Positions 5,036 to 27,934 of a DNA stretch of 64,000 nucleotides are shown here, piece after piece. Every line of letters starts with the position of its first letter. The stretch's first letter is position 1. This stretch comes from Candidatus Eiseniibacteriota bacterium (GTDB taxonomy: Bacteria; Eisenbacteria; RBG-16-71-46), in assembly GCA_963707915.1 (NCBI GenBank), contig OY970178.1, forward strand, positions 1,024,001 to 1,088,000. The letters are read 5' to 3'. A program made the position numbers and the translations under genes. A model generated the notes under the pieces. That model had not been told where the DNA came from and did no database searches. It saw only the letters and a list, made by a program, of their open reading frames with translations.

Positions 5036-6231
5036 GCGCCGTCCAGGGCGGCGACGCCGGGCAGCACCTTGCCCTCGAGGAACTCGAGGGAGGCGCCGCC
5101 ACCGGTCGACAGGTGGGTGAACTTCTCGGCCAGGCCGGCCTGCTGGATGGCGGCCACCGAATCGCCGCCGCCCACGACCGTGACCGCGCCGTGACCGGTG
5201 AGCTCGGCCATCGCCCGGGCCACGCCCAGCGTGCCCTCGGCGAACGCCGGGACCTCGAAGATCCCCATCGGGCCGTTCCAGACCACCGTCTTCGCGTCCC
5301 GGAGCCGGGCCGCGAAGAGCTTCACCGATTCCGGCCCGATGTCCACTCCCATCTCCGCGGGGCCGAGCCCCTCGAGCGGGACCGTCCGCCCGGGAGCGCT
5401 CCCGTCCGGCGCAGTCGAGGCCACGCAGTCCACCGGCAGCACCAGTTCCACCCCGCGCGCCTGCGCCTGCTCCAGCACGGCCTTCGCCATCCCGATCCGG
5501 TCGTCCTCGACCAGCGACTTCCCGGTCGGCCGGCCCTGCGCCTTGAGGAAGGTGAACATCATCGCCCCGCCCACCAGCAGCCGGTCCACCTTGCCCAGCA
5601 GCTGCGTGATCACGTCGATCTTGCCGGAGATCTTCGCGCCGCCCAGCACGGCGACGAACGGCCGCTGCGGACGGTCGAGCGCCCGGCCCAGATAGTCGAG
5701 CTCCTTCTGCATCAGGAACCCGGCCACCGCCGGCCGCAGGAAGTGCGTCACGCCCTCGGTCGAGGCGTGCGCACGGTGCGCGGTGCCGAAGGCGTCGTTC
5801 ACGAAGGCGTCCCCCAGCGCGGCCAGTTGCCGGGCGAAGCCGGCGTCGTTCGCCTCCTCCTCGGGGTGGAACCGCAGGTTCTCGAGCAGCAGGACCTGGC
5901 CGTCCTGCAGCGCGCGCGACCGGGCCTCCACGTCGGGGCCGACGCAGTCGGAGGCGAACGCCACCGGCTGGCCCAGCAGCTTCTCGAGGAGCGCGGCCAC
6001 GGGCTTGAGACTGTTCTTGGTGTCCGGCCCGCCCTTCGGCCGGCCGAGGTGCGACATCAGGATGACGCGCGCCCGCTGCTCGACCAGGTAACGGATGGTC
6101 GGGAGGGCCGCCACGATGCGCGTGTCGTCCCCGACCTGGCCGTCCTTGACCGGCACGTTGAAGTCGACGCGCACCAGCACGCGCCGGCCGGCCGGCCGGA
6201 GTTCCTTGAGACCCTTCTTGGCGTCGCCCAT
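5032..6231 (-). CDS. pgk: Phosphoglycerate kinase
   Basis: [45 protein letters not shown]. Confidence 0.98.
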
Positions 6232-6241
6232 GGCCCCTCCC

Positions 6242-7240
6242 CTACGCCATCATCAGCAGGGCGTCCACCACGCGCTGCGAGAAGCCCCACTCGTTGTCGT
6301 ACCAGGAGAGCACCTTGACCAGCGTCCCCCCCATGACGTTCGTGGAGAGCGAGTCGAACACGCTGCTGTGGGGATTGCCGATCACGTCGGTGGAGACGAT
6401 GGGGTCGGTGCAGAACTCGAGGATGCCCTTCATCGGGCCCTCGGCCGCCGCCTTCATCGCGGCGTTGATCTCGTCCTTCGTCGTGCTCTTGCGGACCTCC
6501 ACCACCAGGTCCACGAGCGAACCGTCGGGGGTCGGCACGCGCACCGCGAGGCCGTCCAGCTTGCCCTTGAGCTCCGGCAGCACCTCGCCGATGGCCTTCG
6601 CCGCGCCGGTCGAGGTCGGGATCATGCTCATCGCCGCCGCGCGCGCCCGGCGCAGGTCCTTGTGCGGCAGGTCGAGGATCTTCTGGTCGTTGGTGTAGGC
6701 GTGGATCGTGGTCATGAAGCCGCGTTCGATGCCGACCAGGTCGTTCAACACCTTCGCGACCGGCGCCAGGCAGTTGGTCGTGCACGAGCCGATGCTCACG
6801 ACCTGGTGCTTCGCCTTGTCGAAGAGCTTGTCGTTGACCCCGATGACGAAGGTCAGGTCGCCGCCCTTGGCCGGCGCCGACACCACGACGTTGCGCGCGC
6901 CCGCGGCCAGGTGCAGCGCCGCGCCGTCGCGGTCCGTGAACTTGCCGGTGGCTTCGAGCACGACGTCCACGCCGAGCGCCTTCCACGGCAGCTTGGCCGG
7001 ATCCTTCTCCGCCAGCACCTGGATCTTCTTGCCCGCCACCTCGAGATGACCGTCCACCGCCTTGCCGGCCCTGGGCCAGACGCGGTGGACCGAGTCGTAC
7101 TTCAGCAGGTGCGCCAGCGTCGGCGCGTCGGTGATGTCGTTGACCGCCACGAACTCGATGGGGACCCCGCGGTCCACCGCTGCGCGCACCACCAGGCGAC
7201 CGATGCGCCCGAATCCACTGATCCCGACACGAACCGCCAT
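6242..7240 (-). CDS. gap: Type I glyceraldehyde-3-phosphate dehydrogenase
   Basis: [23 protein letters not shown]. Confidence 0.98.
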
Positions 7241-7310: not shown

Positions 7311-8348
7311 TCAGCCGAAGAAGACCCGCGCGGTCTCGAACAGCTCCGCGGGCACGGTGCGCGGACCCTGCCGCACCACGTCCAGACCCACGGACGTGAT
7401 GCGCCCGCCCTGCAGGCTCACCATGCGTCCGTACTCGCCCCGGACGGCCAGGTCCACCGCTTCGATGCCCATGCGCGTGCCCAGCAGCCGGTCGAACGGG
7501 GTGGGGGTGCCGCCCCGCTGCACGAACCCGAGCGTGACGGTGCGGGTCTCGGTCTTGAGTCGCGCCTCGATCTCGCGCGCCAGGATCTCGCCCACGCCGC
7601 CGTAGCGCGGGCGGCCGAACGGATCGAGGGACTGCGGGATCTCGATCGTCCGCCCGTCCGGGTCGGGCTCGAAGCGCGCCCCCTCGGCCACCACGACGAT
7701 ACTGAAGAAGCGCCCGCGCGCCTGCCGGTGACGGATGTAGTTGCAGACCTCGTGCACGCTGGTGGGGCGCTCGGGCGTCACCACGACGTCGGCGCCCCCC
7801 GCCACGCCCCCGCACACCGCGATCCAGCCCGCACTACGTCCCATCACCTCGAGCACGATCACCCGGTCGTGGGACTCGGCCGTGGTGTGGAGCGCGTCCA
7901 CGGCGTCCACCACGTGGCACAACGCGGTGTCGAAGCCGAAGGCGTAGTCGGTCTCCGGCACGTCGTTGTCGATGGTCTTGGGGATGCCGACGATCGGCAC
8001 ACCCGCCTGCCACAGCCGTTCGGCAGCGGACAGCGTGCCGTCGCCCCCGCACACCAGCAGCCCATCCAGTTCGTGCAGGGCAAGGGCGTCCTTGACGGCC
8101 TGTGCGCCCCCCTCCTCGCGGAGCGGATCGGTGCGGGAGGTCCCGAGGATCGTGCCGCCCCGCGGCAGGATGCCCTTGATGGCCGGCAGGTCGAGGTCGC
8201 GGGCCCGGGACTTGAATAGCCCCAGCCAACCGTCCTCGAAGCCCACCATCTGGCCCTGGTAGGTGCGCACCGTACGGACGACGGCTGCCCGGATGAGCGC
8301 GTTGAGCCCCGGACAGTCGCCACCGCCGGTCAGGATGCCCAAACGCAT
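7311..8348 (-). CDS. pfkA: 6-phosphofructokinase (PfkA family, group III-like; GGDG suggests ATP-dependent)
   Basis: [41 protein letters not shown]. Confidence 0.95.
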
Positions 8349-8419
8349 GCTGACACTCCGGCCCCGGAGGGACTCTTCGGTCGGGAAGGACCATGGAGAT
8401 GGATCGACAGAACGGGCCG

Positions 8420-8448
8420 AATATGCCCGATGGTGCGGGGGGGGTCAA
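8420..8448 (-). promoter_or_regulatory. Sigma70-type promoter of the glycolytic operon
   Basis: TTGACC-17 nt-CATATT on the minus strand, about 70 nt upstream of pfkA. Confidence 0.55.
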
Positions 8449-8469
8449 GGACGGCCGGGCCCGGCCGCG

Positions 8470-9939
8470 TCACTCCGTCGTGTAACGCAGGCGGAAGTCC
8501 CCCACGCCCAGATCGTCGACGAACAGGAAGACGAGCCGCTTGCGGCGCACCCGTCCGGCGACGGCGGGATCGGCGTCCGGGGGCAGCCCGATCGGACCCT
8601 GGTAGATCCACAGCTCGAAGGGGCGCGGGTCGCCGCCGGGGCCCTTCAGGTTGACGTCCCCGACCGAGCGGTCCTCGTTCGCGACGATCTGGGAGATGAC
8701 CTGGTCCACCGTCTGGTCGCCGGTGGGGATCACCTGGTTCACGACCTCGCTGGGCTCGCCATACCGGACATAGGTCCTTCCCATGTCGGAGAACATCCCC
8801 TTGCCGAGCCCCGGCCGGGTGTACATCCGGTTCGCGTAGGCCACCCGCCGCAGGAACGTCGCCCGCGCCTCGTTCTCCGGACTGCCGGGGTTGGGGTTGC
8901 GCGCCGCCCAGAATTCGTCGAGGTAGTGCTCCTGCTCCCCGGGAGAGAGCAGCGCGAACGCCTCCTCGTCGTCCGCACCCAACAGGAAGTGGACGTCGTC
9001 CTGGACCTCGCGCGGGTTCTGCAGCCACGATTCGGCCTGCCACGCCACGCTGAAGGCGGCCCGCCGCACGAGCGGCAGCGAATCGCCTTCCTGCCGCACC
9101 CGCAGCTCCAGCTCGTAGCCGCCCGGCGGCGCCGACGACAGATCCACCGCCACGCCACCCTCGAGCAGCCGCGTCGCGGCCGCGGTGCTCTCCCGCGTGG
9201 CGATCGGTCGCCCTCCGCCGTCGAGGACGACGGCGGTCCAGTGCCACGGCGACTCCGCGTCCGACCGCGCCACGAACGCCGTCCGCAATTCCGGCGCGAA
9301 GCGCCCGTACAGGCGCTCCGGGTCCGGCAGCAGGGTCCGCCCGTGTCGCTTGAACACCGTCGCCCGCCCACCCTCACGCTCGGTCCACAGGAACTCGATG
9401 TCGGAGAGCTCGCGCCCGCCCCGGGGCGCCGCGACGCGCACCTCCCCCTCGACCCGGGCCGTGGAGGCCAGCTTCACCGACAGGGCCCCGCGCCGGCGGG
9501 ACACCACGTCGTCCACGCGCACGAGCAGGCGGTAGACGCCCGGCCGCGACGGGAACCTCATCCCGACCACCTTGCCGAAGCCCCCGGACGAATCCGCCGG
9601 CTCGATGGCGAACTCCTGGGTCTGCTCCTGGTTGCCCGCCCCGCCGAAGACACCGCGCAGCCGGGCCGTCACGCGCAGCCGGGCCAGCCCTTGGGCGTCC
9701 CGCATCAGCGCCGCCAGCGTGCCGCTCGGGAGGCGCACGTAGACCTCGAGCGACGTCCCGGACGATTCGGGGAACGACGCGGCGTCCACGGTGAAACCTC
9801 CGCGGCCCGCCACCCGCCAGGGCAGAGGCCCCGTGTCCGGGCCCCTGGCCACGGCCGTGCCGGCCCCACCCAGGGCCAGCATGACCGCCAAGACGAGACG
9901 CGCCCCCACCCGGGGGCGCGTCCCACACGACTTCGTCAT
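8470..9939 (-). CDS. Exported GWxTD-domain protein
   Basis: Signal peptide (RLVLAVMLALGGAGTAVA), beta-rich N-terminal part, then FWAARNPNPGSPENEARATFLRRVAYANRMY...GMFSDMGRTYVRYGEP and FELWIY, matching the GWxTD-domain pattern. Start uncertain (ATG 9939 chosen). Confidence 0.82.
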   Translation of the reverse strand: MTKSCGTRPRVGARLVLAVMLALGGAGTAVARGPDTGPLPWRVAGRGGFTVDAASFPESSGTSLEVYVRLPSGTLAALMRDAQGLARLRVTARLRGVFGGAGNQEQTQEFAIEPADSSGGFGKVVGMRFPSRPGVYRLLVRVDDVVSRRRGALSVKLASTARVEGEVRVAAPRGGRELSDIEFLWTEREGGRATVFKRHGRTLLPDPERLYGRFAPELRTAFVARSDAESPWHWTAVVLDGGGRPIATRESTAAATRLLEGGVAVDLSSAPPGGYELELRVRQEGDSLPLVRRAAFSVAWQAESWLQNPREVQDDVHFLLGADDEEAFALLSPGEQEHYLDEFWAARNPNPGSPENEARATFLRRVAYANRMYTRPGLGKGMFSDMGRTYVRYGEPSEVVNQVIPTGDQTVDQVISQIVANEDRSVGDVNLKGPGGDPRPFELWIYQGPIGLPPDADPAVAGRVRRKRLVFLFVDDLGVGDFRLRYTTE

Positions 9940-9964
9940 CAGGTCCGCCGGCCGAGGACCGCGA

Positions 9965-10918
9965 TCAGAACAGGAACGTGAGCGAGAAGCGGTGAACACC
10001 GCCCAGGTCCTTCATGTCCGTGAACGCGTAGTCCACGTCGGCCATGCCGACCACCGAGACCGGCACGTGGAACCCGATCCCCCCGGCGGCGCCCTCGGAA
10101 TCGTAGTTGAAGGCGTAACCACCCCGCAGGAACAGGTACTTGTGGAACGAGTACTCCGCTCCGAGGTTGAGCCGTTCCGAGTTGTCCGGCGGGTGCGAGA
10201 ATTCCAGCGAGCCCACCAGCTTCTGATCGGCCCGCTGCAGGAGCACCGCCGAGGCGCCGACCCGGAAGATCGACGGCATGCGGGCCGAGCGGTCGATGAA
10301 GGTGATCTGGGAGCCGATGTTCGAGATGGACATGCCGATGCGCATCCCCAGCGTGCCCACGTCGTAGAGCGTCCCGACGTCGAACGCCATGGCCTGCCGG
10401 GAGTACTCGGCCAGCCCCTCGGTGACGTAGTTGCCGGTGACGCCGGCGCTGAACTTGTCCGTGAACGAACGGGCGTAGGTCAGGCCCAGCGTCATCATGC
10501 CGGCGTCGAACGTCTCCCCCGTGCGGGGATCGGGCTCCGGCGTGTACGCCGTCGTCACCAACATCGGCTGCATGGTGAGCGCGCGGGCGTGGATCGCGAA
10601 GGCCCCGGGGATCCGGCGCGTGTGGAAGACGTAGCTGACCTGGTCGAACGAAAGGTCGGCGATCCAGTTCGCGTGATTCAGCGAGAGCTCGGACTTGTCC
10701 GGATCGATGCGTGCGATGCCCGCGGCGTTCCAGTAGACGGAGCTGGCGTCGTCCGCCATGCCGACGAAGGCACCCCCCATGCCGGCCGCCCGGGAACCGA
10801 CCGGGATCTCCAGGAACTGACTGCCGACCGTCCCAACCTTCTCGAAGATGATAGCCGCACCTGCCCAACCGGGGATGAGCAGACCCGCCAGGCCCAGCGC
10901 CGCGATGACCTTTCTCAC
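9965..10918 (-). CDS. PorV/PorQ-family (UPF0164-like) outer-membrane beta-barrel
   Basis: Signal peptide; QFLEIPVGSRAAGMGGAFVGMADDASSVYWNAAG signature; amphipathic strands; C-terminal HRFSLTFLF beta-signal. Confidence 0.88.
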   Translation of the reverse strand: MRKVIAALGLAGLLIPGWAGAAIIFEKVGTVGSQFLEIPVGSRAAGMGGAFVGMADDASSVYWNAAGIARIDPDKSELSLNHANWIADLSFDQVSYVFHTRRIPGAFAIHARALTMQPMLVTTAYTPEPDPRTGETFDAGMMTLGLTYARSFTDKFSAGVTGNYVTEGLAEYSRQAMAFDVGTLYDVGTLGMRIGMSISNIGSQITFIDRSARMPSIFRVGASAVLLQRADQKLVGSLEFSHPPDNSERLNLGAEYSFHKYLFLRGGYAFNYDSEGAAGGIGFHVPVSVVGMADVDYAFTDMKDLGGVHRFSLTFLF

Positions 10919-10945
10919 TGCGATCCTCCTCTCTCGCTCCCGCGC

Positions 10946-13933
10946 CTAGCGGATGACCACGAACTTGCCGCGCTGCGTGCCCTTGCTGGATTCGACGGTG
11001 AAGACATAGATCCCGCTGACAATGTCCTGTCCATTTCGTGAAATCAAGTTCCAGCTGGCCTGGCCGTCATTCGGATTGTCCTGCTGCCGGTTGTACCCCG
11101 GCACCGTCGACCCGTCCGCACCAGTGATCGGCGTGCGGATGGACTCGTTGACCGGGTCCTCCGATCGAAGGGTCTGCACCAGGTCACCCGAGACCGTGTA
11201 GACCTTGATGGTCCACTTCCCGCGCGGCAGCCCCAGGAAGTCGATGTGCGTGCCGGTGGGATCCGACCCCTTGGGCGTCAGGTCCCAGGACGAAGGCCGC
11301 TGCTCGATGGTCCGGTAGCCGCGGTAGGGGTTCGGCACGACGTAGGCGCTCATCCCGTCCCGCGCCCCGGCCTGCGGCACCACGCCATCGGCCTCGGCGG
11401 CCGACCGGCGGCCCTCCAGCTGGCTCATCTGCTGCCCGACGCCGGTCGAGTCGAAGGCCGTCACCGAGTAGAAGTAGACGAAGCCGTTCTTGACCTGGGT
11501 GTCCTCGTACTTGTAGCGCCCCACGGGGTAGCGCGTGCGGCTCTCGTAGTTCACCGGGTTGTCGCAGGGCAGCCCGTTGATGCACGCATGGAACACGTCG
11601 CACTGGCCCGGGCTGTCCTTCTTCGGCGAACAGGTGATCGGCTCCGCCCGGATGATCTGGCCGGTCTGCCGGTTCCACAGGTCGTCCAGCTGCAGGCAGA
11701 CCTCGACGGTGGCGGTGTCGATCCTGCCGTCCGGATAGGTGTAGCTGGGCACGAAGATGCGCGGGCAGGGGCTCGTGTCCGAATAGTTCCGCTGCTGCAG
11801 CACCCAGCCGGCGCTGGCGTTCTCGTAGTTGTAGATGTGGAACTGGCGGAACTCGCCCAGCAGCGCCCAATCGTCATCGCTCGGCCCCGCCGATCCCACC
11901 GGCCGCTGCCAGTCCGCCGCCTTCCACACCTTGTAGCCGCGGAAGTCGAACCGGTTCGTCTTGGGATCCGGCGTGACCTCGGAGAGGTTGTCCCAGGAGA
12001 GCGTCACGCGCTTGTCGCCCGCCGGGATGACGCGGTCCGGGCTGTCGGAGTAGTTGTACAGGGCCGACACGTTCATGTTCGGATTCGGCGGCGGGGCCTC
12101 GGCGTTCCAGGTGTGGTGGAACATGCCCCGCTGCGTCTGGCTGTTGTAGGCGCCGGTGCAGTAGTCGCAGTCCATGTCGCCCCAGTCCACGGGGTTCGGC
12201 CAGGGGAGCACCGGCGGGCGAGCATTGCCCTCGTCGCGGCAATCCATCACCTCGAGCGTCCCTTCGCCCGCGGCCGGGTGGACCGGCGTCTCGCGGCCAT
12301 GGCCGTTGGTGAGCAGGGGCCAGTCCCGCTGTTCGTAGACGCCCGCAGCCGCGACCTGGATGGTGAAACCGTTCTTGAGCGAAGGGTACTTGGTGACCAG
12401 GGCGCCCGAGCCGCCGTCGAACGTGCCCGCCTGCATGGCGGAGTAGTCGCTCTCGAAGCCATCGGCAAGAGCCTTGTTCCCGGGGGCCACGCTGAACGCG
12501 ACGGTGACCTGGATGCTGGCACCATCCTGAACGCTGAACCACGGCCCGCACGACCACCAGGCCTGGTAGTCGCCCTTCTCGTCGTTCGGGGTATCCAGCT
12601 TGATGCGGCCATCCTCACCGATGTTCCTGCCCGCCCTGCCCGACATGAATTCGTAGCGCTCCGCGTCGGTGCGCGGCCCGCCGCCACCCATGTAGGGCGT
12701 GCTGCCCGTGTAGGAGCGGAACGCGAGGAAGCCCACCTGGGGCGGTCCCGTCAACCCGGTCGGGTCGACCGTGTGGTCCACCAGGAAGAAGGTGGGGATT
12801 CCGGGCGTGCGGCCCAGGTCCCCATCGTCGTCGACCACCGAGAAACCATTGACGTGGATGTTGTAGTGGGTGCACAGAGCCGAGTCGTTCGAGGCGCCGG
12901 CCGGGATGTCGGGCAGCCTCATGCCCGGCTCCTGGAGTCGCTTGTCCGTGCCGTCCGTGGGCACCTGGTAGGGGAGCACGGCGCTCGGGTAGCCCGCCAG
13001 GTCGAGGTCGTCCTGCCAGTAACTGGAGGCCAGGGCGGGACCGCAGTCCATGTCCACCAGGCCGCCGACGACGAGGCTGTCCAGCGGGTGGCCGGAACGA
13101 TTGAAGATGGTGTACTGGACGATGTTGAAGTCGGTGAACTTCTCGATCGAGTAGGCCCAGGCCATCTGCTGGACCTCGAGGCCGAGGGGGACGTGCTTCT
13201 CGGCGGCCGAGGCGTTGATCGCCTGCGGCGTGTTGTCCCAGACCACGCAGGTGATGGTCTGCTGCCCGATGGCGCCGAAGTCCTCGTCGATCAGCCCGTC
13301 GAGATCGTTGTCGCGACCGTCCAGGAAGTCCTCGTCGGTGCGCGGGTCCCCCGACCGGAAGAACCGCTCGTCCCGCGTGTAGAAGTCCCCGTCGTCGTTG
13401 AAATACCGGGCACCGCCCAGGATCCCGTCGTAGGCCCGGTACATCTTGTCCACCGGATCGAGGGTCTGGGGCCGCCACTCGGTCAGCGAGCTCACGCGCC
13501 GGATCGCGTTCGGATCCGAGGCCTGCGGGTTCACGGCACCCACCGCCAGGCCGGCCAGGTTCAGGTACTCGATGCCCGAAGCGCCCGGCCACTGTCCGGA
13601 CGGGTCGCTGGAGACGTTCGTCCACGGGTTGCCGAAGATCCCGAAGTTGGTGACCTTCATGTAGACGTTGCCCACCGTGAGCACCGCCCCCGGACCGAAG
13701 ATGTCCGGGATGTCCGTCGGGCTCGCGTTTCCCGATCCCCCGACCGGGAAGTACTCCGGGAAGGCCGCCTTGAACTCGGCCTCCGTCATCCCGTCCGGAG
13801 TCCCGTCGATCGTGCCCTTGCGGAAGAAGCCGGAACCCTGCTCGTCCTGCGCGACCGCGGCGGTCGCGGCGAGCAGGAGCAGCAGCACGCCCACCGCCAC
13901 GCGCAGCCGGCCACGCCAAGCGTTCGTTCTCAT
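10946..13933 (-). CDS. Large secreted protein (~995 aa) with Asp-rich Ca/metal-binding motif, FN3-like segment and T9SS-like C-terminal domain
   Basis: Start ATG 13933 (GAGGGG upstream), signal MRTNAWRGRLRVAVGVLLLLLAATAAVAQ; DGRDNDLDGLIDED; AGDKRVTLSWD...FRGYKVWK; C-terminus YVVPNPY...IDFLGLP...IKVYTVSGDLVQTL...WNLISRNGQDIVSGIYVFTVES...KFVVIR. Confidence 0.8.
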   Translation of the reverse strand: MRTNAWRGRLRVAVGVLLLLLAATAAVAQDEQGSGFFRKGTIDGTPDGMTEAEFKAAFPEYFPVGGSGNASPTDIPDIFGPGAVLTVGNVYMKVTNFGIFGNPWTNVSSDPSGQWPGASGIEYLNLAGLAVGAVNPQASDPNAIRRVSSLTEWRPQTLDPVDKMYRAYDGILGGARYFNDDGDFYTRDERFFRSGDPRTDEDFLDGRDNDLDGLIDEDFGAIGQQTITCVVWDNTPQAINASAAEKHVPLGLEVQQMAWAYSIEKFTDFNIVQYTIFNRSGHPLDSLVVGGLVDMDCGPALASSYWQDDLDLAGYPSAVLPYQVPTDGTDKRLQEPGMRLPDIPAGASNDSALCTHYNIHVNGFSVVDDDGDLGRTPGIPTFFLVDHTVDPTGLTGPPQVGFLAFRSYTGSTPYMGGGGPRTDAERYEFMSGRAGRNIGEDGRIKLDTPNDEKGDYQAWWSCGPWFSVQDGASIQVTVAFSVAPGNKALADGFESDYSAMQAGTFDGGSGALVTKYPSLKNGFTIQVAAAGVYEQRDWPLLTNGHGRETPVHPAAGEGTLEVMDCRDEGNARPPVLPWPNPVDWGDMDCDYCTGAYNSQTQRGMFHHTWNAEAPPPNPNMNVSALYNYSDSPDRVIPAGDKRVTLSWDNLSEVTPDPKTNRFDFRGYKVWKAADWQRPVGSAGPSDDDWALLGEFRQFHIYNYENASAGWVLQQRNYSDTSPCPRIFVPSYTYPDGRIDTATVEVCLQLDDLWNRQTGQIIRAEPITCSPKKDSPGQCDVFHACINGLPCDNPVNYESRTRYPVGRYKYEDTQVKNGFVYFYSVTAFDSTGVGQQMSQLEGRRSAAEADGVVPQAGARDGMSAYVVPNPYRGYRTIEQRPSSWDLTPKGSDPTGTHIDFLGLPRGKWTIKVYTVSGDLVQTLRSEDPVNESIRTPITGADGSTVPGYNRQQDNPNDGQASWNLISRNGQDIVSGIYVFTVESSKGTQRGKFVVIR

Positions 13934-13965
13934 GTCCCCTCGCTGCCCGATTGGCTGTTCCATGG

Positions 13966-16863
13966 CTAGAACGTGATGCTCAAGCCGAGCCGCACGTTCC
14001 GGCCTTCTTCGTAGACACGCGGATCCCGGACCGGCACCCAGTCCAACTGGTAGTCGCCGTTGATGTCCTGCAGATAGGCGCCGCCGGACCGTCCGGTCTC
14101 CGTGAAATAGATCAGGTAGTCGTCGCCCGCGGAGTCCACGTACGGGTTCACGAGGTTGAATCCGCCGACCTGCTGGATGTTCTTCGAGTCCAGCACGTTC
14201 CTGACGTCGAAGAACAACGTCAGGTTCTGTCCCCACACCTTGTAGTACTTGTCACCGTCGATCGTGAGCCGCGCGACCGAGGGCAGTCGCCGCGAGTTGT
14301 CCAGCGCCGGATCCGGACGGCGGTCGTTGCGGAAGGACGGCGTGAACGGGAAGCCCGATCCGTACAGCCACAGCATCCGGAAGCCCCACTTGCCCGGGTC
14401 ACGCACCACCGTCTGCACGGAGAGCGTGTGGCGCTGGTCCCAGTCCAGCGGCTGCTCGGAGATGGGCAGGTAGAGCTGGCCGCCGTTGAAGAACTGCAGC
14501 GCGGTGTTCGGGTCCGACGCCACCCCGGTCGCGAGCTGGAAGGTGTAGTTCACCTCGGCCGAGAACTTGTGGCTGAAGCTCTTGATGATGCTGGTCTCGA
14601 AGCCCCGCGAGCTGGCGTAGTCGCCGTTGAAGTACACGTTGACCAGGTTGCCGAACTCGTCGCGCTCCTGCCGCACGGTGATCAGCCCGTAGATGTCCTT
14701 GAAGAACACCGAGAACTGCCCCGAGATGTCCCGCGAGAAGAGGTGCTGCACGCCCGCCTGGTAGGAGATGTTGGTCTCGGGCTCCAGGTCCGGGTTCCCA
14801 CGCACGCCCACGCTGGCCTGCATGCCGCGGTTCTCGAAGATGTACTGGCGTGCCGGGGTCTGGAAGGTCCACCCGTAGTGGAACGAGAGCACGTCCTTGT
14901 CCGAGACCGGGTAGGCGATGCCCAGCCGCGGGCTGAACTGCTGCTTGTAGCGCTTGCCGCTCCTCAGGTCCTTGTTGGCGACCTGCAGGCCAGGCGAGAA
15001 CACGTCGAACCGCAGGCCCGCGTTGACCACGAGCCCCTCGAACTCCCAGCGGTCCTGCATGAACGCGGCGCCTTCGGGGTTGTAGTTGACGAACTCGGAG
15101 CGGGACCCTCCGGGGAGCCCGTTGGCCTCCGAGTTGGGCTGCGTCAGGGCCAGGTTCGACACCTCGTTGTACTTGAGCTCGACGCCGGCCTTGACGGTGT
15201 GCTGCTTGAAGTTCCGGGTCGAGTAGTCGCTCTTCATGTTCCAGGTGGACTGGCTGCGCTTGGAATAGAAGGGACGGTCGCCGTGCGTGGCGAAGTACGG
15301 GTTGTTCTCCGTCCCGGTCTGGACGTTGCCGCTCCAGTACTGGGGGCTCTGGGTCCAGTACTCCCACGGCTGCTTGTTCCCGACCGAACTGAGCACGTTG
15401 AAGTTCAGGTTGGCCACGCGGATCGACCACACCGCCTTGTCCGAGATCTGGTCCGTCCAGACGAATGTCTGCTGGTTGAACCGGTCGTCCGTGGTCGACA
15501 CGTGGTCGGGCATGTTGACGAGCTGGTACGTGGAGTCCTTCTGCGTGGCGCTCCACGCACCGTAGATCGGCAGGTGGTACGTGGCGGCCCGGCCGGCGGC
15601 CGTCGTGTCGTAGGTGACCTTCACGAAGCCCTGGCGGCTCCACATGTGGTCATAGGGGGTGTTCACCGTGCGGTTGTTGATGGTCTCGAACGTCAGCTTG
15701 TTCCGGGGATTCACCCGGTAGGCGAGCTTGAAGTTCGTGTTGACCTGGTTGAACTGCCGGTTGCCCAGCTGGATGAAGTCGAGCAGCGTGTTGTGGGGGC
15801 GGGTCATGCTGCTCTTCAGGTACGTGTCCGAGTAGCTGCCCTCGTAGGTCGCGAAGTAGGTCAGGTTCTTGATCGGGGTCGGACCGCCGAATCCGAAGGT
15901 GAACCGGTCGAAGTTGTTGAACGTCTTGGTCGGGTCGCCGAAACGGTCGGTATCCCAGCGCACCTCGCCGCCGAAGCGCTCGGTGCCTTCCTTCGTGCTG
16001 ACGACCACGACGCCCGAGAGCGCGTTTCCGAACTCCGCATCGAAACCGCCCGAGAGCACGTCCGTGCCGGCCACCGCCAGCGAGGCGATGTTGGCGCCCC
16101 GGCCGAAGAGCGGGTCCGACGCCTCGACGCCGTCGAACTGGAACTTCACCTCGCCACCGCGCCCGCCACGGAAGTGGAGCTCCCCGCCGAACGCCACGAT
16201 GCCGGCCTTCACCGCCACCGCCTCGCGCAGGTTGTCCACCGGGATCTCCTTGAGCTTGTCCGCGGTGATGGTCTGCTTGGTGGTCGAGGACTTCGTGTCG
16301 ATGCGCTTCTGCGCGCTGATCTCGATGGTCTCGAGTTCCTTGACGATCTTCTGTTCGCCGAACGTGAAGTTCAGCGTGGCCGTGGCCCCGGCACTCACCA
16401 CCACCGTCTGCTTCTGCGCGTCGTAACCGGAGGAGAAGGCGCGGACCTCGGTCGGGCCCGCCGGAACGCCGACGATGACGAAATTGCCGTTGTCGTCGGC
16501 CTGGGTGCCCTGCCGGGTCGCAGGGATGGTCACGTTGGCGAAGGGGATCGGCTCCCCGCGGGCGGTCACCCGGCCCTGGATCTTGCCGAACGCCGATGCT
16601 GCCGGCGCGGCCGCCTTCGGGGCGGCCACCGCGGGCCGGGGGGCACTCGGCTGGGCCGGCGCCGCCTTGGGGGCCGTGGGCCGGGGTGCGGTCTTCGGGG
16701 CAACCTTGGCCGGCGTCGTGGTCCGGGGAGCGGCCTTCGGGGCCGTCCGGGGAGACGCCGGCTTGGCCTGCTGAGCTAGTGCGGGGACAGCCAGCGCAAG
16801 GACCAGCACAAGCGCCACGCCCGCTCGGATCAAACGCCTGCCGTCAGAGAACATGCGACTCAA
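13966..16863 (-). CDS. TonB-dependent receptor with N-terminal Pro/Ala/Lys-rich extension and carboxypeptidase-regulatory-like domain
   Basis: Signal peptide; GKIQGRVT..GEPIPFANVTI; TonB-box-like LETIEISA; plug LHFRGGRGGEVKFQFDG, SGGFDAEFGNALSGVV; FSPRLGIAYP, GNPDLEPE; C-terminal RNVRLGLSITF. Start TTG 16863 or ATG 16854. Confidence 0.92.
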   Translation of the reverse strand: MSRMFSDGRRLIRAGVALVLVLALAVPALAQQAKPASPRTAPKAAPRTTTPAKVAPKTAPRPTAPKAAPAQPSAPRPAVAAPKAAAPAASAFGKIQGRVTARGEPIPFANVTIPATRQGTQADDNGNFVIVGVPAGPTEVRAFSSGYDAQKQTVVVSAGATATLNFTFGEQKIVKELETIEISAQKRIDTKSSTTKQTITADKLKEIPVDNLREAVAVKAGIVAFGGELHFRGGRGGEVKFQFDGVEASDPLFGRGANIASLAVAGTDVLSGGFDAEFGNALSGVVVVSTKEGTERFGGEVRWDTDRFGDPTKTFNNFDRFTFGFGGPTPIKNLTYFATYEGSYSDTYLKSSMTRPHNTLLDFIQLGNRQFNQVNTNFKLAYRVNPRNKLTFETINNRTVNTPYDHMWSRQGFVKVTYDTTAAGRAATYHLPIYGAWSATQKDSTYQLVNMPDHVSTTDDRFNQQTFVWTDQISDKAVWSIRVANLNFNVLSSVGNKQPWEYWTQSPQYWSGNVQTGTENNPYFATHGDRPFYSKRSQSTWNMKSDYSTRNFKQHTVKAGVELKYNEVSNLALTQPNSEANGLPGGSRSEFVNYNPEGAAFMQDRWEFEGLVVNAGLRFDVFSPGLQVANKDLRSGKRYKQQFSPRLGIAYPVSDKDVLSFHYGWTFQTPARQYIFENRGMQASVGVRGNPDLEPETNISYQAGVQHLFSRDISGQFSVFFKDIYGLITVRQERDEFGNLVNVYFNGDYASSRGFETSIIKSFSHKFSAEVNYTFQLATGVASDPNTALQFFNGGQLYLPISEQPLDWDQRHTLSVQTVVRDPGKWGFRMLWLYGSGFPFTPSFRNDRRPDPALDNSRRLPSVARLTIDGDKYYKVWGQNLTLFFDVRNVLDSKNIQQVGGFNLVNPYVDSAGDDYLIYFTETGRSGGAYLQDINGDYQLDWVPVRDPRVYEEGRNVRLGLSITF

Positions 16864-16916
16864 CCTCTCGGGTGCGATGCAACGCGTTCACGGAAACCTG
16901 ACCAGAGGAACGGTAG

Positions 16917-16945
16917 ACCATGCCAAGCCAAGGACAAGCTGTCAA
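16917..16945 (-). promoter_or_regulatory. Proximal sigma70-type promoter of the TBDR operon
   Basis: TTGACA-17 nt-CATGGT on the minus strand. Confidence 0.5.
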
Positions 16946-17141
16946 CGCGACCACGGCCGGAATCCCTTCCATCCGCCGGAAATCTGCGGAGATCCGCTGC
17001 CATCCGGCCGCGCGAGAAGCCAGTCACGAGCGGTCGGAAGTCACGGCCGGAGTCGGAAGTCGAGGAGGCGGTCCGATTCTGCTGGATAGGCACCTGAGGA
17101 GAAGCCGCCGGACGGCGGTGCCCTACGCCCAGTACGAGGTG

Positions 17142-17171
17142 ACTATCCCCCCGACGTGCTGCAATTGTCAA
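17142..17171 (-). promoter_or_regulatory. Distal sigma70-type promoter of the TBDR operon
   Basis: TTGACA-18 nt-GATAGT on the minus strand. Confidence 0.4.
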
Positions 17172-17224
17172 GAGGTCTTTCAGTCCTGCCACGGACCCGG
17201 CTCCCCCCCTGCCCCGCCGCGCGC

Positions 17225-18853
17225 TCAGAACGTCCACCTCACCACGCTGGCCAGTTGCTGGCGGCTCGAGCGGGGATCGGCCGGGGCGCCGAAGTCGGCC
17301 TGCCGCCATTCGATCGCGTAGCCGGCCTCGAAGGCCCAGGTCGCCCCGACGGGACGGATCCCCAGGCCGAGCGTCACGGCGTTGGCGAGATACTCGTTCT
17401 GCCGGGTGTAGTCGTCCTCGTCCTCCCACCGGTGCACGTAGCCGATGCGTCCGCTCAGGACCGGGTTGCAGCGGTACTCGAGCCCGGTCCGGACGTCCCA
17501 GCCCTTGCGCAGCGGCCCCTGCCCGCTCGCCGTCTGCTCCAACAGGCCCTGCGACCGGTGGTACTCGACGCCCCAAGATCCGCGCCCACCCGGCAGCCGC
17601 ACCAAGAGACCGCCGCCGGCCTCCCAGGTCCGCTCCTCCGACTGCGCGAAGGTCACGCTGTCCGGAAGCACGAGGGAGTCGGTGTTCGGGCGGTAGTAGA
17701 TGACGGTCCGGAAATGGTTGAACGAGGTGAGGTCGCCGGCGCTGGGGGGCATGATGGAGACCTTGCGGTAGCCGGTCGTCACACCCCCGCCCACCTGGAA
17801 CGGCCCCTGGGTCCAGCGCAGCCGCGTGCGCAAGGCCTGCCCGCGCTCATCGCGATCCTGCATCTTGCCGCCGCCCACGAGCGGGGGAGCCGACGTGCCG
17901 GCCGAGATGCTGAACGACCACGTCTCCTCGGACCTCGAGCGCCAGTCGCGGCCGTCCACGCCCCACTCCAGGTTGCCCGCCAGCCGTCCGACCATCGTGA
18001 CCTGGGTCGTGTAGTAGGGGCGCGCCTCGTCGTTCCGAGCGACGTGACGGGCCGACTCGTTCTTCCCGGTGATGTTGCTCTGGACGTAATCCGAGTTCAC
18101 CGCGGCCTTGAAGGCACGGCCGCGGTCGTACGCCACGCCCACCCCACCGCCCAGGGTGCGGACCCGGTAATCGTTCGGCGTGAAGAGGTCCGGCGGATCC
18201 ACCGGCGCCCCCGTCCGGTCGATGTACTGGCCCTGGGAGTTCTCCCACACCTCGCGGAACTCGTTCTTCCGCATCTCACCCGAGTAGAACAGCCGCATCG
18301 AGTAGAGCCAGTGGCTCGACTTGACGTAGGGGATGTGCCCCATCATCACGGGCATGGCCGTCGGCTGGGTGAAGGTGCTGCTCTGCTCGATGGTCTCCGA
18401 GAGGATCTGGTCCATGCGCATGGACCCGAAGTCGCCGGTGACGCCGAAGACCGACTGGCCGGGCGTCCGACGCCAGACCTCGTAGCCGATCCGGCTCTCC
18501 CGCGCCGCGCGCTCCTGCCGCTCGAGGGTCGCGTCGCCGGCGGCGAGGTCGTGCACCCGCGAGAAGGACGAGGTCGCCGGGTAGAACTCGGCCGTGTCGG
18601 TGCTGTCCGCATCGAGGACGCCCAGGGGGCTGCCCGCGAAGTCCCACAGCGTGATGGCCATGTGGGGGTCGTCCCCCACGAACGTCATCCCCCCCATGCC
18701 CAGCATGCGCGGGCTGCGTTCGATGGCGTCCAGGGAGAAGCCGAGCGCCCCGCGCGCCGCGTCGTAGAACTGGGCGTACACGGGCGCCGAGAAAGCCGTG
18801 AGGAGAAGAACAGAACTGATCGCGCTCAGCAGAACCCTGCGCCTGGGGCTCAT
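17225..18853 (-). CDS. Outer-membrane beta-barrel protein of unknown function
   Basis: Signal peptide ending VYA-Q; SPRMLGMGG resembles the N-terminal motif of FadL/PorV-like barrels; many amphipathic strands (WDVRTGLEY, VTLGLGIRP, FEAGYAIEW); C-terminal VVRWTF beta-signal. Confidence 0.72.
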   Translation of the reverse strand: MSPRRRVLLSAISSVLLLTAFSAPVYAQFYDAARGALGFSLDAIERSPRMLGMGGMTFVGDDPHMAITLWDFAGSPLGVLDADSTDTAEFYPATSSFSRVHDLAAGDATLERQERAARESRIGYEVWRRTPGQSVFGVTGDFGSMRMDQILSETIEQSSTFTQPTAMPVMMGHIPYVKSSHWLYSMRLFYSGEMRKNEFREVWENSQGQYIDRTGAPVDPPDLFTPNDYRVRTLGGGVGVAYDRGRAFKAAVNSDYVQSNITGKNESARHVARNDEARPYYTTQVTMVGRLAGNLEWGVDGRDWRSRSEETWSFSISAGTSAPPLVGGGKMQDRDERGQALRTRLRWTQGPFQVGGGVTTGYRKVSIMPPSAGDLTSFNHFRTVIYYRPNTDSLVLPDSVTFAQSEERTWEAGGGLLVRLPGGRGSWGVEYHRSQGLLEQTASGQGPLRKGWDVRTGLEYRCNPVLSGRIGYVHRWEDEDDYTRQNEYLANAVTLGLGIRPVGATWAFEAGYAIEWRQADFGAPADPRSSRQQLASVVRWTF

Positions 18854-26390: not shown

Positions 26391-27188
26391 CTACTTCGTC
26401 TTCGGCGGGTGCCGCTCGAGGCGCGCGAGTTCCTTCGCGGCGATCCGGGCCAGGGGCTTGTCCGCGCCGCTCTTCAGGATGTCGCGCAGCACGGCCATCG
26501 CCTCGTCGCGCTTGCCCGCCATCGCGTCGGCCAGGCCGAGACCCAGGTGCGCGTCCGGCGCGATCGACGTGTCCGGGTACTCGTCGATCACGCGGCGGAA
26601 GTAGACGCGGGCCGGGCCGGCGCGCCGCAGCTTCAGGTAGAGGACGCCCGAGCGGTTGAGCTTGTCCGCCAGCCGCTCGCGCGCGGCCAGGCGGCGCGTC
26701 GTGGCCTCGGCGTTCAGCCAGTGCCCGGGGTAGGCGCGCAGGTAGCTCTCCCACTGGTCGACGGCCTTCTGCGTGTATTCCTGGTCGAAGGCCGCGCCGC
26801 GGGACTGCCCCCAGAGCGCCTCGCCCAGGTGGAACGAGGCGGCGGCCGCGGAATCGCTCTCGGGGTAGTCGCGCAGGACCCGCTCGAACTGGCCCTGCGC
26901 CTCGGCCCACTCCTTGATGCGCAGGTTCGCCTCGCCCAGCAACTCGATGGCCTGGTCCACGTCGGCACCGCCCGCGTTGTTCGCGACGTAGCTCTTTAGC
27001 AGCTCGAGCGCGACGTTGTACTCGCGCAGCTGGAGCGCGCGCCGCCCCTGGGCCAGGCGCTCCGGCTCGGAATGGATGGCGGGGATGCTGCTCGCCCCGC
27101 ACCCGGACAGCGATCCGGCGAGCAGGCCGAGCGCGAGCGGGAGCAGCACCCGGCGCACCCTGCGGGACCTCGTCACGGCGGGCCTCAC
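26391..27188 (-). CDS. bamD: Outer-membrane protein assembly lipoprotein BamD (TPR)
   Basis: Lipobox LSGC, TPR helices, FDQEYTQKA..W..YL..YP, RERLADK...YLK; next to nadD. Start GTG 27188 (overlaps upstream stop) or GTG 27176. Confidence 0.85.
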   Translation of the reverse strand: MRPAVTRSRRVRRVLLPLALGLLAGSLSGCGASSIPAIHSEPERLAQGRRALQLREYNVALELLKSYVANNAGGADVDQAIELLGEANLRIKEWAEAQGQFERVLRDYPESDSAAAASFHLGEALWGQSRGAAFDQEYTQKAVDQWESYLRAYPGHWLNAEATTRRLAARERLADKLNRSGVLYLKLRRAGPARVYFRRVIDEYPDTSIAPDAHLGLGLADAMAGKRDEAMAVLRDILKSGADKPLARIAAKELARLERHPPKTK

Positions 27189-27934
27189 GGTCGGTTCTGG
27201 AAGAAGAGCGCCGCCAGGCCGCCGACCACGGCGATCACGACCAGCGGCTCGAAGACCTTGCCCACGTTCCGGGTCGGCACCGGGCTCTTGAGATCGCTGT
27301 GCCGCTCGTCCTCGACCAGGCTGACCCGGTCGGCCCGGAAGGCGTCCAGCAGATTGTACGAGGCGCTCGACGACCACAGCACGTTGGCGCTGCGCGGATC
27401 TCGCAGCGTGAGCGCGCCCTCGACCAGGGACTGCCGCTCGATCTTCACGCGCCCCGAGAAGGGCAGCCAGCCCACCAGCCTCAGGTAGGTCACCCGCGCG
27501 GTGGCGAGCTGGTACTCGAGCAGCGGGTCGCCGGTCGGCGAATAGGTCGACAGGCTGTCGTCCGCCAGGATGCTGCGCCGCACGGTGGCCGTCACGCCGC
27601 GCCGGGCCAGCTCGCGCAGCACGGCCTGCTCGACGACGAAGTTGAGCGGGTGGCTCTCGGCCGGCGCCAGCACCACGTGGGCGCCCGTGTCGATCGGGGC
27701 CGATTGCAGCGCGCGCGAGAAGGCGGTGTTGGCGACCAGCGTCAGGACCTGCAGGTTGGTCGCCGGCACGCGGGGCCCGCGGGGCCGCACGATGGGATTG
27801 ACCTCGGCCAGGGTGGTCGAGAAGGTCGTGTCGATGCCCGGCTTGGGCCCGGCGGCGTACTTGAACTTCTTCGCCTCCGCGGGGGAGCCGAACACCAACA
27901 GGCCGACCAGGGCGGCCGCGAGTCCTGCACGCAT
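27185..27934 (-). CDS. Exported hypothetical protein with C-terminal TM anchor
   Basis: N-terminal signal (AEA-K), C-terminal FEPLVVIAVVGGLAALFFQNRP; overlaps rimO stop and bamD start. Confidence 0.7.
   Translation of the reverse strand: MRAGLAAALVGLLVFGSPAEAKKFKYAAGPKPGIDTTFSTTLAEVNPIVRPRGPRVPATNLQVLTLVANTAFSRALQSAPIDTGAHVVLAPAESHPLNFVVEQAVLRELARRGVTATVRRSILADDSLSTYSPTGDPLLEYQLATARVTYLRLVGWLPFSGRVKIERQSLVEGALTLRDPRSANVLWSSSASYNLLDAFRADRVSLVEDERHSDLKSPVPTRNVGKVFEPLVVIAVVGGLAALFFQNRP

Follow-up and report, generated by a model that had tools for sequence, protein, structure and literature searches.

Gene content and organization of the locus

We analyzed a 64,000-nucleotide stretch of the genome of a Candidatus Eiseniibacteriota bacterium (assembly GCA_963707915.1, contig OY970178.1, positions 1,024,001 to 1,088,000; hereafter the window), in which five minus-strand genes at positions 8470-18853 encode, in order, an outer membrane barrel, a TonB-dependent receptor (TBDR), a large secreted protein (the cargo), a PorV-like barrel, and a GWxTD protein (Table 1). 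The TBDR, cargo, and PorV-like genes form a triad that recurs within and beyond this genome, and that may represent a TonB-dependent uptake module lacking SusD. The host is an uncultured bacterium of the soil/sediment type, and its nearest public relatives are metagenome-assembled genomes (MAGs) labelled Candidatus Eisenbacteria. Its genome is a single contig of 3.62 Mb that is 94.8% complete, and the G+C content of the window is 72%.

The TBDR and cargo genes are separated by 32 bp, the cargo and PorV-like genes by 27 bp, and the PorV-like and GWxTD genes by 25 bp, while a gap of ~361 bp lies between the genes for the 542-aa barrel and the TBDR. A promoter consensus scan returned three sites where 0.5 were expected (19004-18976, 17171-17142, and 8448-8420), all of them intergenic, upstream of minus-strand genes, and consensus matches only. 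Because the second site is followed downstream by gaps of 25-32 bp, the arrangement suggests that the TBDR, cargo, PorV-like, and GWxTD genes form one four-gene operon; the gene for the 542-aa barrel is probably a separate transcription unit. The initial annotation had described four closely spaced, co-oriented genes preceded by another barrel, a picture borne out by the open reading frames (ORFs), gaps, and family matches. Among the sequencing runs listed for the locus, three DNA runs have shares of 0.06-0.19 and a fourth next to none; no RNA run is listed.

Table 1. Features of the locus and related features elsewhere in the window and genome (window coordinates unless stated otherwise).
Feature	Position	Strand	Basis or remark
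542-aa outer membrane barrel candidate ("orphan barrel")	17225..18853	-	ORF and translation
Promoter-like site TTGACA-18-GATAGT	17142..17171	-	Consensus match only; in the 361-bp gap before the TBDR
965-aa TonB-dependent receptor (TBDR)	13966..16863	-	PF13620, PF07715, PF00593
995-aa secreted cargo	10946..13933	-	No Pfam family; AF2 fold; sub-threshold TIGR04183 tail
317-aa PorV/PorQ-family barrel	9965..10918	-	NF033709
489-aa GWxTD protein	8470..9939	-	TIGR04514
TPR-fused GWxTD match	49251-52007	-	Sub-threshold, 24.3 bits
TPR-fused GWxTD match	genome 306879-307181
TPR-fused GWxTD match	genome 1945406-1945657
Paralogous triad L013	cargo, genome 134179-137610		TBDR-cargo-PorV at 131-139 kb
Paralogous triad L011	cargo, genome 3074674-3077196		CTD protein-TBDR-PorV-...-cargo at 3.07 Mb
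Paralogous triad L010	cargo, genome 18082-21103		TBDR-cargo-PorV at 15-22 kb; cargo frameshifted

The TonB-dependent receptor and the absence of SusD

The TBDR consists of a signal peptide, a Pro/Ala-rich linker, a CarboxypepD_reg domain (PF13620, 55 bits), a Plug domain, and a 22-strand-type barrel domain (PF00593, 96 bits against a cut-off of 27). The Plug match (PF07715) lies at 23.7 bits against a cut-off of 23.9 with hmmscan, and at 27.9 bits, over the cut-off, in the genome search. The Plug and barrel domains together identify the protein, at the level of sequence, as a TonB-dependent transporter, and a candidate TonB box (…LETIEISA…) was recognized by eye ahead of the Plug. The length of 965 aa is counted from a TTG start; an ATG start at 16854, with GAGAGG upstream, appears likelier. 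No SusC/RagA model is among the eight NCBIfam matches that the protein has at E ≤ 1. The initial annotation had remarked that no SusD-like gene lies next to the TBDR, and this holds well beyond the locus: the SusD families PF07980 and PF14322 have no match in the whole genome, with a positive result in the Bacteroides thetaiotaomicron control.

The cargo protein: a modelled supersandwich fold and a variant C-terminal tail

The cargo starts at a Met ahead of a hydrophobic, signal-like stretch. It matches no Pfam family even at E ≤ 5, and a Pfam family was found in none of six cargo-family members scanned; the family counts 1174 cluster representatives at E ≤ 0.001. The AlphaFold2 (AF2) model built from a 50-sequence alignment (predicted local distance difference test score, pLDDT, 83.2; predicted template modelling score, pTM, 0.80) shows residues ~70-530 as a galactose-mutarotase-like beta-supersandwich when compared with 48,161 chains in VIA-align (rows span 69-849). 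The best match is the N-domain of a glycoside hydrolase family 15 (GH15) glucoamylase (1lf6_A; Z 18.0, 250 aligned, root-mean-square deviation 3.2), with further matches to the N-domains of GH94, GH65, and GH116 and to aldose epimerases (Z 11-13). Foldseek matches of the whole model are alike in kind, with low TM-scores (~0.17). All 50 sequences share H247, D309, D368, D423, and P464 without variation, and residues 200-218 form a nearly invariant Asp-rich stretch of the DxDxDG type. After the supersandwich come a middle region that contains Cys, domains resembling fn3, and a C-terminal domain (CTD) at ~860-995.

The tail of the cargo scores 18.3 bits on TIGR04183 (PF18962 in Pfam), the type-A CTD model of type IX secretion system (T9SS) substrates, against a cut-off of 23, and falls outside the 86 matches to this model in the genome (E ≤ 0.01). 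The C-terminal part of the cargo-family hidden Markov model (HMM) also matches the C-terminal ends of many other ORFs, in many cases at sites where TIGR04183 matches as well, and its top tail scores belong to cargo-family proteins, most of which adjoin PorV-like barrels. The type-B CTD model TIGR04131 has no match to the cargo tail at E ≤ 1. The tail is best described as a variant type-A T9SS CTD with an insertion, and not as one of type B, a class that the initial annotation had brought in for comparison.

The PorV-like barrel and its predicted docking with the cargo tail

The barrel encoded directly after the cargo scores 201.9 bits on the PorV family model NF033709 (cut-off 90) over residues 32-316 of 317, and stays under the equivalog cut-offs for PorV (NF033710, 80.8 against 250) and PorQ (NF033711, 86.2 against 220) as well as under the cut-off of the PorP/SprF model TIGR03519 (15.3 against 90.55). 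A profile of 24 of its relatives matches the solved PorV of F. johnsoniae (6h3i_F, E 3.1e-26). The protein thus appears by its matches to belong to the PorV/PorQ family, being neither PorV proper nor PorQ proper. AF2 run without an alignment gave a pLDDT of 28.6 for this barrel.

When residues 850-995 of the cargo (50 rows) were modelled on the mature barrel (24 rows), three runs gave an interaction prediction score from aligned errors (ipSAE) of 0.92-0.93. Three controls gave 0.00-0.01. In the cargo-barrel runs, partner pLDDT was 65 or higher, and 91% or more of the contacts were shared. Of 157 solved complexes, 116 reach the mark used for such predictions, as do 2 of 215 mismatched pairs; with custom alignments these counts hold only roughly. 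The complex of tail and barrel foreseen in the initial annotation was predicted, and the PorV-like barrel is modelled as an anchor for the C-terminal domain of the cargo.

These results bear on another explanation, by which the barrel would act as a channel of the FadL type, passing a small hydrophobic substrate, and would be unrelated to the cargo tail and placed next to the cargo by a shared substrate. PorV is a FadL homologue according to PMC12578637, and the barrel has a sub-threshold match to the FadL family Toluene_X (PF03349, 24.6 bits against 29.7). The PorV family score is nonetheless far over that for FadL, no FadL chain is among the solved-structure matches of the PorV-like profile at E ≤ 0.01, the tail is predicted to dock at 0.92 against 0.01 for the best control, and the proteins with the top tail scores on the cargo-family HMM adjoin PorV-like genes. 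We regard a FadL-type channel as very improbable.

Type IX secretion in the host genome

A search of the genome for T9SS core genes found a translocon of the SprA type (501 bits when summed within one frame) and PorU (464.9 bits, cut-off 420), the latter followed by its own PorV-family gene (genome 475783-476676). The genome also contains 72 TIGR04183 matches over the cut-off, eight PorV-family genes over the cut-off, and 11 Plug-domain receptors. Judged by these matches, a T9SS with SprA, PorU, PorV, and many CTD proteins is encoded in the host. Because there are eight PorV-family genes and another one follows PorU, the barrel at the locus is not the single general-purpose shuttle of the genome, in agreement with the earlier proposal of a dedicated paralog; had it been that shuttle, the initial annotation would have counted its own reading as refuted.

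Two further PorV-family genes have genes for small secreted proteins before them: one (genome 1521892-1522716) follows a protein with fn3 and FlgD_ig domains (L014:10843-11892), and another follows a DUF4384 protein (L015:8898-11353). Such arrangements suggest that private barrel-cargo pairs without a TBDR exist in the host genome. In the window itself, a plus-strand gene at 46296-47786, 30 kb from the locus, encodes a 496-aa protein with a FlgD_ig/type-A CTD tail (TIGR04183, 30.4 bits; genome 1071535-1071771), by its sequence an ordinary T9SS cargo.

Conservation of the gene order in Eisenbacteria and Krumholzibacteriota

The flanks of the locus are housekeeping genes, with PrfB and phosphoglucomutase (PGM) upstream and PFK, GAPDH, PGK, and TIM downstream. 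With the cargo as query, nine Eisenbacteria loci were retrieved, and all six that span the region keep the full order PrfB-PGM-barrel-TBDR-cargo-PorV-like-GWxTD-(PFK)-GAPDH; three truncated loci agree within their reach. Identities over these first nine loci are 48-82% for the GWxTD protein, 39-72% for the 542-aa barrel, and 72-96% for GAPDH, and a distant class (GAPDH 60%, cargo ~30-38%) retains the same gene order. No other gene of the set is as conserved as the TBDR (68-90% among the Eisenbacteria loci, 44% in the most distant class). Over the same loci, identity is 69-83% for the PorV-like barrel and 44-77% for the cargo, and the faster evolution of the cargo fits the expectation for an exposed partner.

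A cargo-family profile has matches in 151 of 151 Eisenbacteria genomes, including all 118 of high quality (150 of 150 without G015, a genome flagged as unpublished). Anchoring the search on the PorV-like barrel gave at least 564 confirmed relatives among the 600 stretches listed, and the best 80 examined included 79 new loci. The cargo and TBDR genes are present upstream in 50 of the 53 new loci with at least 6.5 kb of upstream DNA (exceptions L089, L107, and L113), and GWxTD is present downstream in 66 of the 73 with at least 1.7 kb of downstream DNA (exceptions L089, L107, L113, L115, L117, L118, and L119). A Krumholzibacteriota locus (L110) holds the full four-gene set. Since the arrangement is syntenic in dozens of related genomes, it is, as far as gene order can tell, far beyond chance, and the conserved TBDR-cargo-PorV-GWxTD order that the initial annotation led us to look for extends across Eisenbacteria and Krumholzibacteriota.

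Additional cargo genes accompany this arrangement in some genomes. Some Eisenbacteria (L025, L032, L048, L061, and L091) have a second cargo gene, which either separates the PorV-like gene from GWxTD or comes after the latter, and many Eisenbacteria genomes have several near-full-length cargo paralogs elsewhere (four matches at 908-973 bits in G032). One locus, L009, in which the end of a cargo gene directly precedes GAPDH, was considered as an exception to the gene order and rejected. It is probably a second cargo copy, because in L061, from the same MAG, a second cargo gene follows PorV-GWxTD and runs off the contig.

Recurrence of the TBDR-cargo-PorV-like triad

The family HMM found three other full-length cargo paralogs in the host genome, and all three lie beside a CarboxypepD_reg-type TBDR and a PorV-family barrel (Table 1). 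The triads take in four of the eight PorV-family genes and four of the 11 Plug-domain TBDRs of the genome. The triad L010 is followed by a CTD-bearing glucoamylase-type gene (PF10091), a LacI regulator, a second PF10091 gene, and a sugar-binding protein of an ATP-binding cassette (ABC) system. The cargo gene of this triad (L010:5785-9107; genome 17.8-21.1 kb) can be read only in pieces that lie in several frames (5785-, 6110-6763, 7328-7834, and 7863-9107), which points either to decay of the gene or to a series of indel errors in the assembly; the TBDR upstream of it ends in an odd Arg/Pro-rich stretch.

A survey of 20 loci from 12 other Eisenbacteria genomes gave 11 with the orthologous set TBDR-cargo-PorV-(second cargo)-GWxTD, one with TBDR-cargo, and one with cargo-cargo-PorV. 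In a KSB1 genome, the full triad is present in five of the nine loci examined, and two more are partial (cargo with PorV-like, and cargo with TBDR), one of these two having its cargo gene cut at a contig end. A MAG labelled Bacteroidota contains the triad in two of three loci, one of them directly after GH20 and HGSNAT-like genes. The TBDR-cargo-PorV-like unit, which the initial annotation had proposed for lineages of the Fibrobacterota-Chlorobiota-Bacteroidota (FCB) type, is thus repeated in the genome, in KSB1, and in the Bacteroidota MAG.

The pattern of recurrence also speaks to whether cargo and receptor work together. They might be co-regulated and uncoupled, the cargo being a T9SS-secreted enzyme or binder whose variant tail needs a private shuttle for export, in the way that PorP/SprF is needed by type-B cargo, and the TBDR importing its products without any lid, like the receptor of any utilization locus. 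Loci with cargo and PorV-like genes and no TBDR exist (L026, cargo-cargo-PorV; L121, cargo-PorV), as does the PorV-family gene with an fn3/FlgD_ig protein upstream in L014, and cargo paralogs without partners are common. The invariant residues H247, D309, D368, and D423 could mark an active site, and among the structural matches at Z 11-14 are GH174 and some lyases, in which the supersandwich fold is catalytic. On the other hand, the TBDR gene lies only 32 bp upstream of the cargo, the order is kept in 50 of the 53 informative loci and in the KSB1 and Bacteroidota MAG triads, and all four full-length cargo-family genes of the genome adjoin a TBDR. Such tight and repeated adjacency is typical of physical partners, SusC/SusD being an example, and we consider an uncoupled pair rather unlikely.

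The GWxTD protein and the upstream barrel

The GWxTD protein (TIGR04514, 65.9 bits against a cut-off of 28; PF20094, 26.1 against 26.9) has a signal-like N-terminus with no lipobox cysteine, and no solved relative was found by sequence or with a nine-sequence profile. Three other GWxTD matches in the genome lie on the C-terminal side of tetratricopeptide repeat (TPR) proteins (Table 1). The domain occurs in two architectures in this one genome, with a beta-rich N-terminal region, as at the locus, or with TPR. In other phyla, GWxTD loci lie beside a triad in none of five cases in KSB1 (of six matches), in none of four in the Bacteroidota MAG, and in one of four in a Krumholzibacteriota genome, this one being the ortholog. 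The neighbours of these other GWxTD genes differ between loci, and among them are SMC, a MiaB-like gene, a gene of the Omp85/POTRA type, and a BamD-like TPR gene together with one for an Omp85-domain protein. By this distribution, GWxTD appears to be a wider envelope-associated family whose tie to the module is specific to the Eisenbacteria and Krumholzibacteriota lineages. The role of periplasmic accessory given to it in the initial annotation is weakened by the finding that none of the nine KSB1 and Bacteroidota GWxTD loci examined is near a triad.

In two of eight loci of other phyla, GWxTD lies beside Omp85-type genes: it adjoins an Omp85/POTRA gene in the Bacteroidota MAG (L140:518-3570), and a BamD-like TPR gene with a peptidase_MA/PD40/Omp85-domain protein in KSB1 (L137:2347-7811). 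These neighbours hint that GWxTD may be linked to outer membrane assembly. In L135 and L140, GWxTD follows a MiaB-like radical-SAM gene. A neighbourhood resembling those of GWxTD in other phyla lies at 26391-29310 in the window (minus strand), where a MiaB-like gene, a gene for a 249-aa product without family assignment, and one for a TPR lipoprotein resembling BamD/YfiO stand in a row, with no GWxTD match among them.

The 542-aa barrel has a signal-like N-terminus and the C-terminal residues ...RWTF. Its tail matches NF033709 weakly (20.4 bits), and hhalign against the PorV-like alignment gave a probability of 44% over 46 columns. Its nearest ESM-Atlas clusters bear the name FadL/OMPP1 family (score 0.97), at a recognition value of 2259, below 2300. 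The protein is possibly a distant FadL/PorV-like barrel, which we treat as a lead. Orthologs precede the TBDR in L001, L002, and L004-L008, and an HMM built from close orthologs only found the barrel in 31 of the 50 loci that reach far enough upstream. Both this barrel and the GWxTD protein appear, from their distribution, to be companions of the window ortholog only.

The companions and the setting of the window copy raise the further alternative of envelope building or export, in which the cargo, as a major surface protein anchored to barrels, would form a universal surface coat, or the TBDR would work outward like Oar, with GWxTD as an assembly helper. The cargo family is present in every Eisenbacteria genome searched, the ortholog is embedded between PrfB/PGM and PFK/GAPDH, the conservation of the TBDR overlaps that of GAPDH, and GWxTD adjoins the Omp85- and BamD-like genes just described. 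FadL-like barrels are, moreover, structural parts of the Bacteroidota beta-barrel assembly machinery (BAM) according to PMC12578637. By contrast, the triad is multi-copy and diversified in KSB1 and has four copies here, which fits a diversity of substrates better than one machine. One triad lies in a glycan-use cluster and another beside GH20, and, given the T9SS-type tail of the cargo and the SprA gene in the genome, a second exporter would be unneeded. We judge an envelope-building or export function decidedly unlikely.

Proposed function of the module

In the reading that we propose, whose chances we put at about even, the locus codes for a TonB-dependent uptake module that does without SusD and tethers its capture partner to a barrel. 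The cargo would use Sec to cross the inner membrane and the T9SS of the genome (SprA) to pass the outer one. Instead of being passed to PorU for removal, its CTD would stay docked on the dedicated PorV-like barrel, tethering the cargo at the surface beside the TBDR. There, the supersandwich would capture, and perhaps trim, a substrate, most likely a glycan, and hand it to the TBDR for TonB-driven import, so that cargo and barrel would do the job of SusD and the surface glycan-binding lipoproteins of Bacteroidota. Because the window copy is a phylum-wide single-copy ortholog among housekeeping genes, its substrate is probably something that every member of the phylum needs. Of the SusC/D alternative put forward in the initial annotation, the recurring triad, the predicted docking, the lack of SusD, and a cargo fold of the carbohydrate-active enzyme type are supported, while the role of GWxTD as an accessory is weakened and the tail is a variant of type A rather than type B.

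A bolder version, which we hold only tentatively and would not expect to prove right, is that the TBDR, cargo, and PorV-like barrel form a stable machine, a SusCD-like lidded transporter built from T9SS parts, with the supersandwich as the lid and its tail locked in the private barrel. The variant tail would then be a "stay-attached" signal that diverts the cargo from PorU cleavage, and the unit would serve general nutrient capture in SusD-less FCB-type phyla (Eisenbacteria, Krumholzibacteriota, KSB1, and others).

Several points weigh against an uptake module with a tethered capture partner. Contact between the cargo and the TBDR is hypothetical, and the step from adjacency and predicted docking to substrate capture for the TBDR is an inferred one. 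Sugar binding by the cargo is only suggested by the modelled fold, because the N-domains that it matches in glycoside hydrolases and phosphorylases are not catalytic, and YidC shares the supersandwich in its periplasmic domain (Z 11.1). The tail scores under the curated TIGR04183 cut-off. As PorV-substrate complexes have already been solved (6h3i and 8gl* entries), the docking pass may reflect memory of, or likeness to, these complexes, and as a prediction it does not tell a private barrel from a general PorV. A tree of 18 PorV-family barrels, with long branches, requires three changes for the TBDR-linked ones (128 of 500 shuffles are as low; approximately unbiased test, p-AU 0.53), and by this tree a single clade of TBDR-linked barrels is neither supported nor rejected. 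GldM/PorM was not found with TIGR03517 or PF12081, models with which no control genome matched over the cut-off; the motor of this phylum may be too divergent or differently organized. Related genomes are non-independent samples, and seven of the 20 loci surveyed in other Eisenbacteria are solo or tandem cargo genes with no TBDR or PorV-like gene nearby. Finally, the neighbours of the window ortholog are PrfB, PGM, and genes of glycolysis, and next to it lies neither a regulator nor an enzyme of glycan breakdown; this housekeeping neighbourhood leaves room for a structural or envelope role of the window copy.

Relation to known systems

The proposed uptake module resembles SusC/SusD and RagA/RagB in that a CarboxypepD_reg-type TBDR lies beside the gene for a large surface partner, in an arrangement that is repeated and in some copies accompanied by glycan-use genes. 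It differs from both in that the SusD/RagB family is lacking genome-wide and the TBDR has no SusC/RagA match in NCBIfam. Compared with SusC/SusD, the partner here is a T9SS-type cargo with a presumed barrel anchor rather than a lipoprotein, three genes are involved instead of two, and the lid is hypothetical.

The presumed anchor has parallels within T9SS. Cognate PorV-like barrels have been proposed to retain uncleaved CTDs, as for PorZ with PorQ and for type-B cargo with PorP/SprF, and in Porphyromonas PorZ stays on PorQ and PorU on PorV, according to the review PMC10202324. As in the PorZ-PorQ and PorU-PorV pairs so described, a type-A-like CTD would stay on a PorV/PorQ-family barrel and hold the protein at the surface. 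These pairs, however, are once-per-genome parts of the secretion machine, whereas the module here is a repeated, TBDR-linked payload; its barrel lies below the PorV and PorQ equivalog cut-offs, and the PorU-PorV pair of the genome is encoded elsewhere. The SprB-SprF type, a type-B CTD protein with PorP/SprF, is similar in that the gene for a cognate barrel, a presumed anchor of the cargo in that review, lies in a cluster with the cargo gene. It is set apart by the TIGR04131 and TIGR03519 results for the tail and barrel of the locus, and the known pairs have no TBDR.

For the Bacteroidota BAM, PMC12578637 describes a FadL-like barrel that holds a surface protein, and in the BamG-BamH pair reported there the extracellular loops of a FadL-like, 14-strand barrel do the holding. 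That complex, however, has BamA as its base and a lipoprotein in BamH, whereas the locus has no Omp85 gene.

In Myxococcus, Oar, a TBDR of the CarboxypepD_reg type, is needed for the secretion of PopC. The locus recalls this type because a secreted protein is encoded next to a long TBDR that contains CarboxypepD_reg, and departs from it in that the tail of the cargo is of the T9SS type and the genome encodes a T9SS translocon; nothing tested points to outward transport.

A literature search found no account of a TBDR that is paired with a CTD-bearing cargo and a PorV-like barrel of its own, and nothing on GWxTD, within a coverage that excluded subscription journals and preprint supplements. 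Overall, the parts of the module are of known kinds, and their combination is a new variation on the TonB transporter with a surface partner.

Implications

SusC/SusD-type lidded transporters explain the dominance of Bacteroidota in glycan-rich habitats, and we know of no account of how related phyla of soils and sediments that lack SusD capture polymers. If the proposed module is real, a unit of TBDR, T9SS cargo, and private barrel would be a second, independently built answer to polymer capture. T9SS tails and PorV paralogs would gain a new role in the permanent tethering of transporter partners, and the Pfam-less cargo family would be given a function. Utilization loci would also become predictable in genomes where finders of SusD-based polysaccharide utilization loci (PULs) see nothing.

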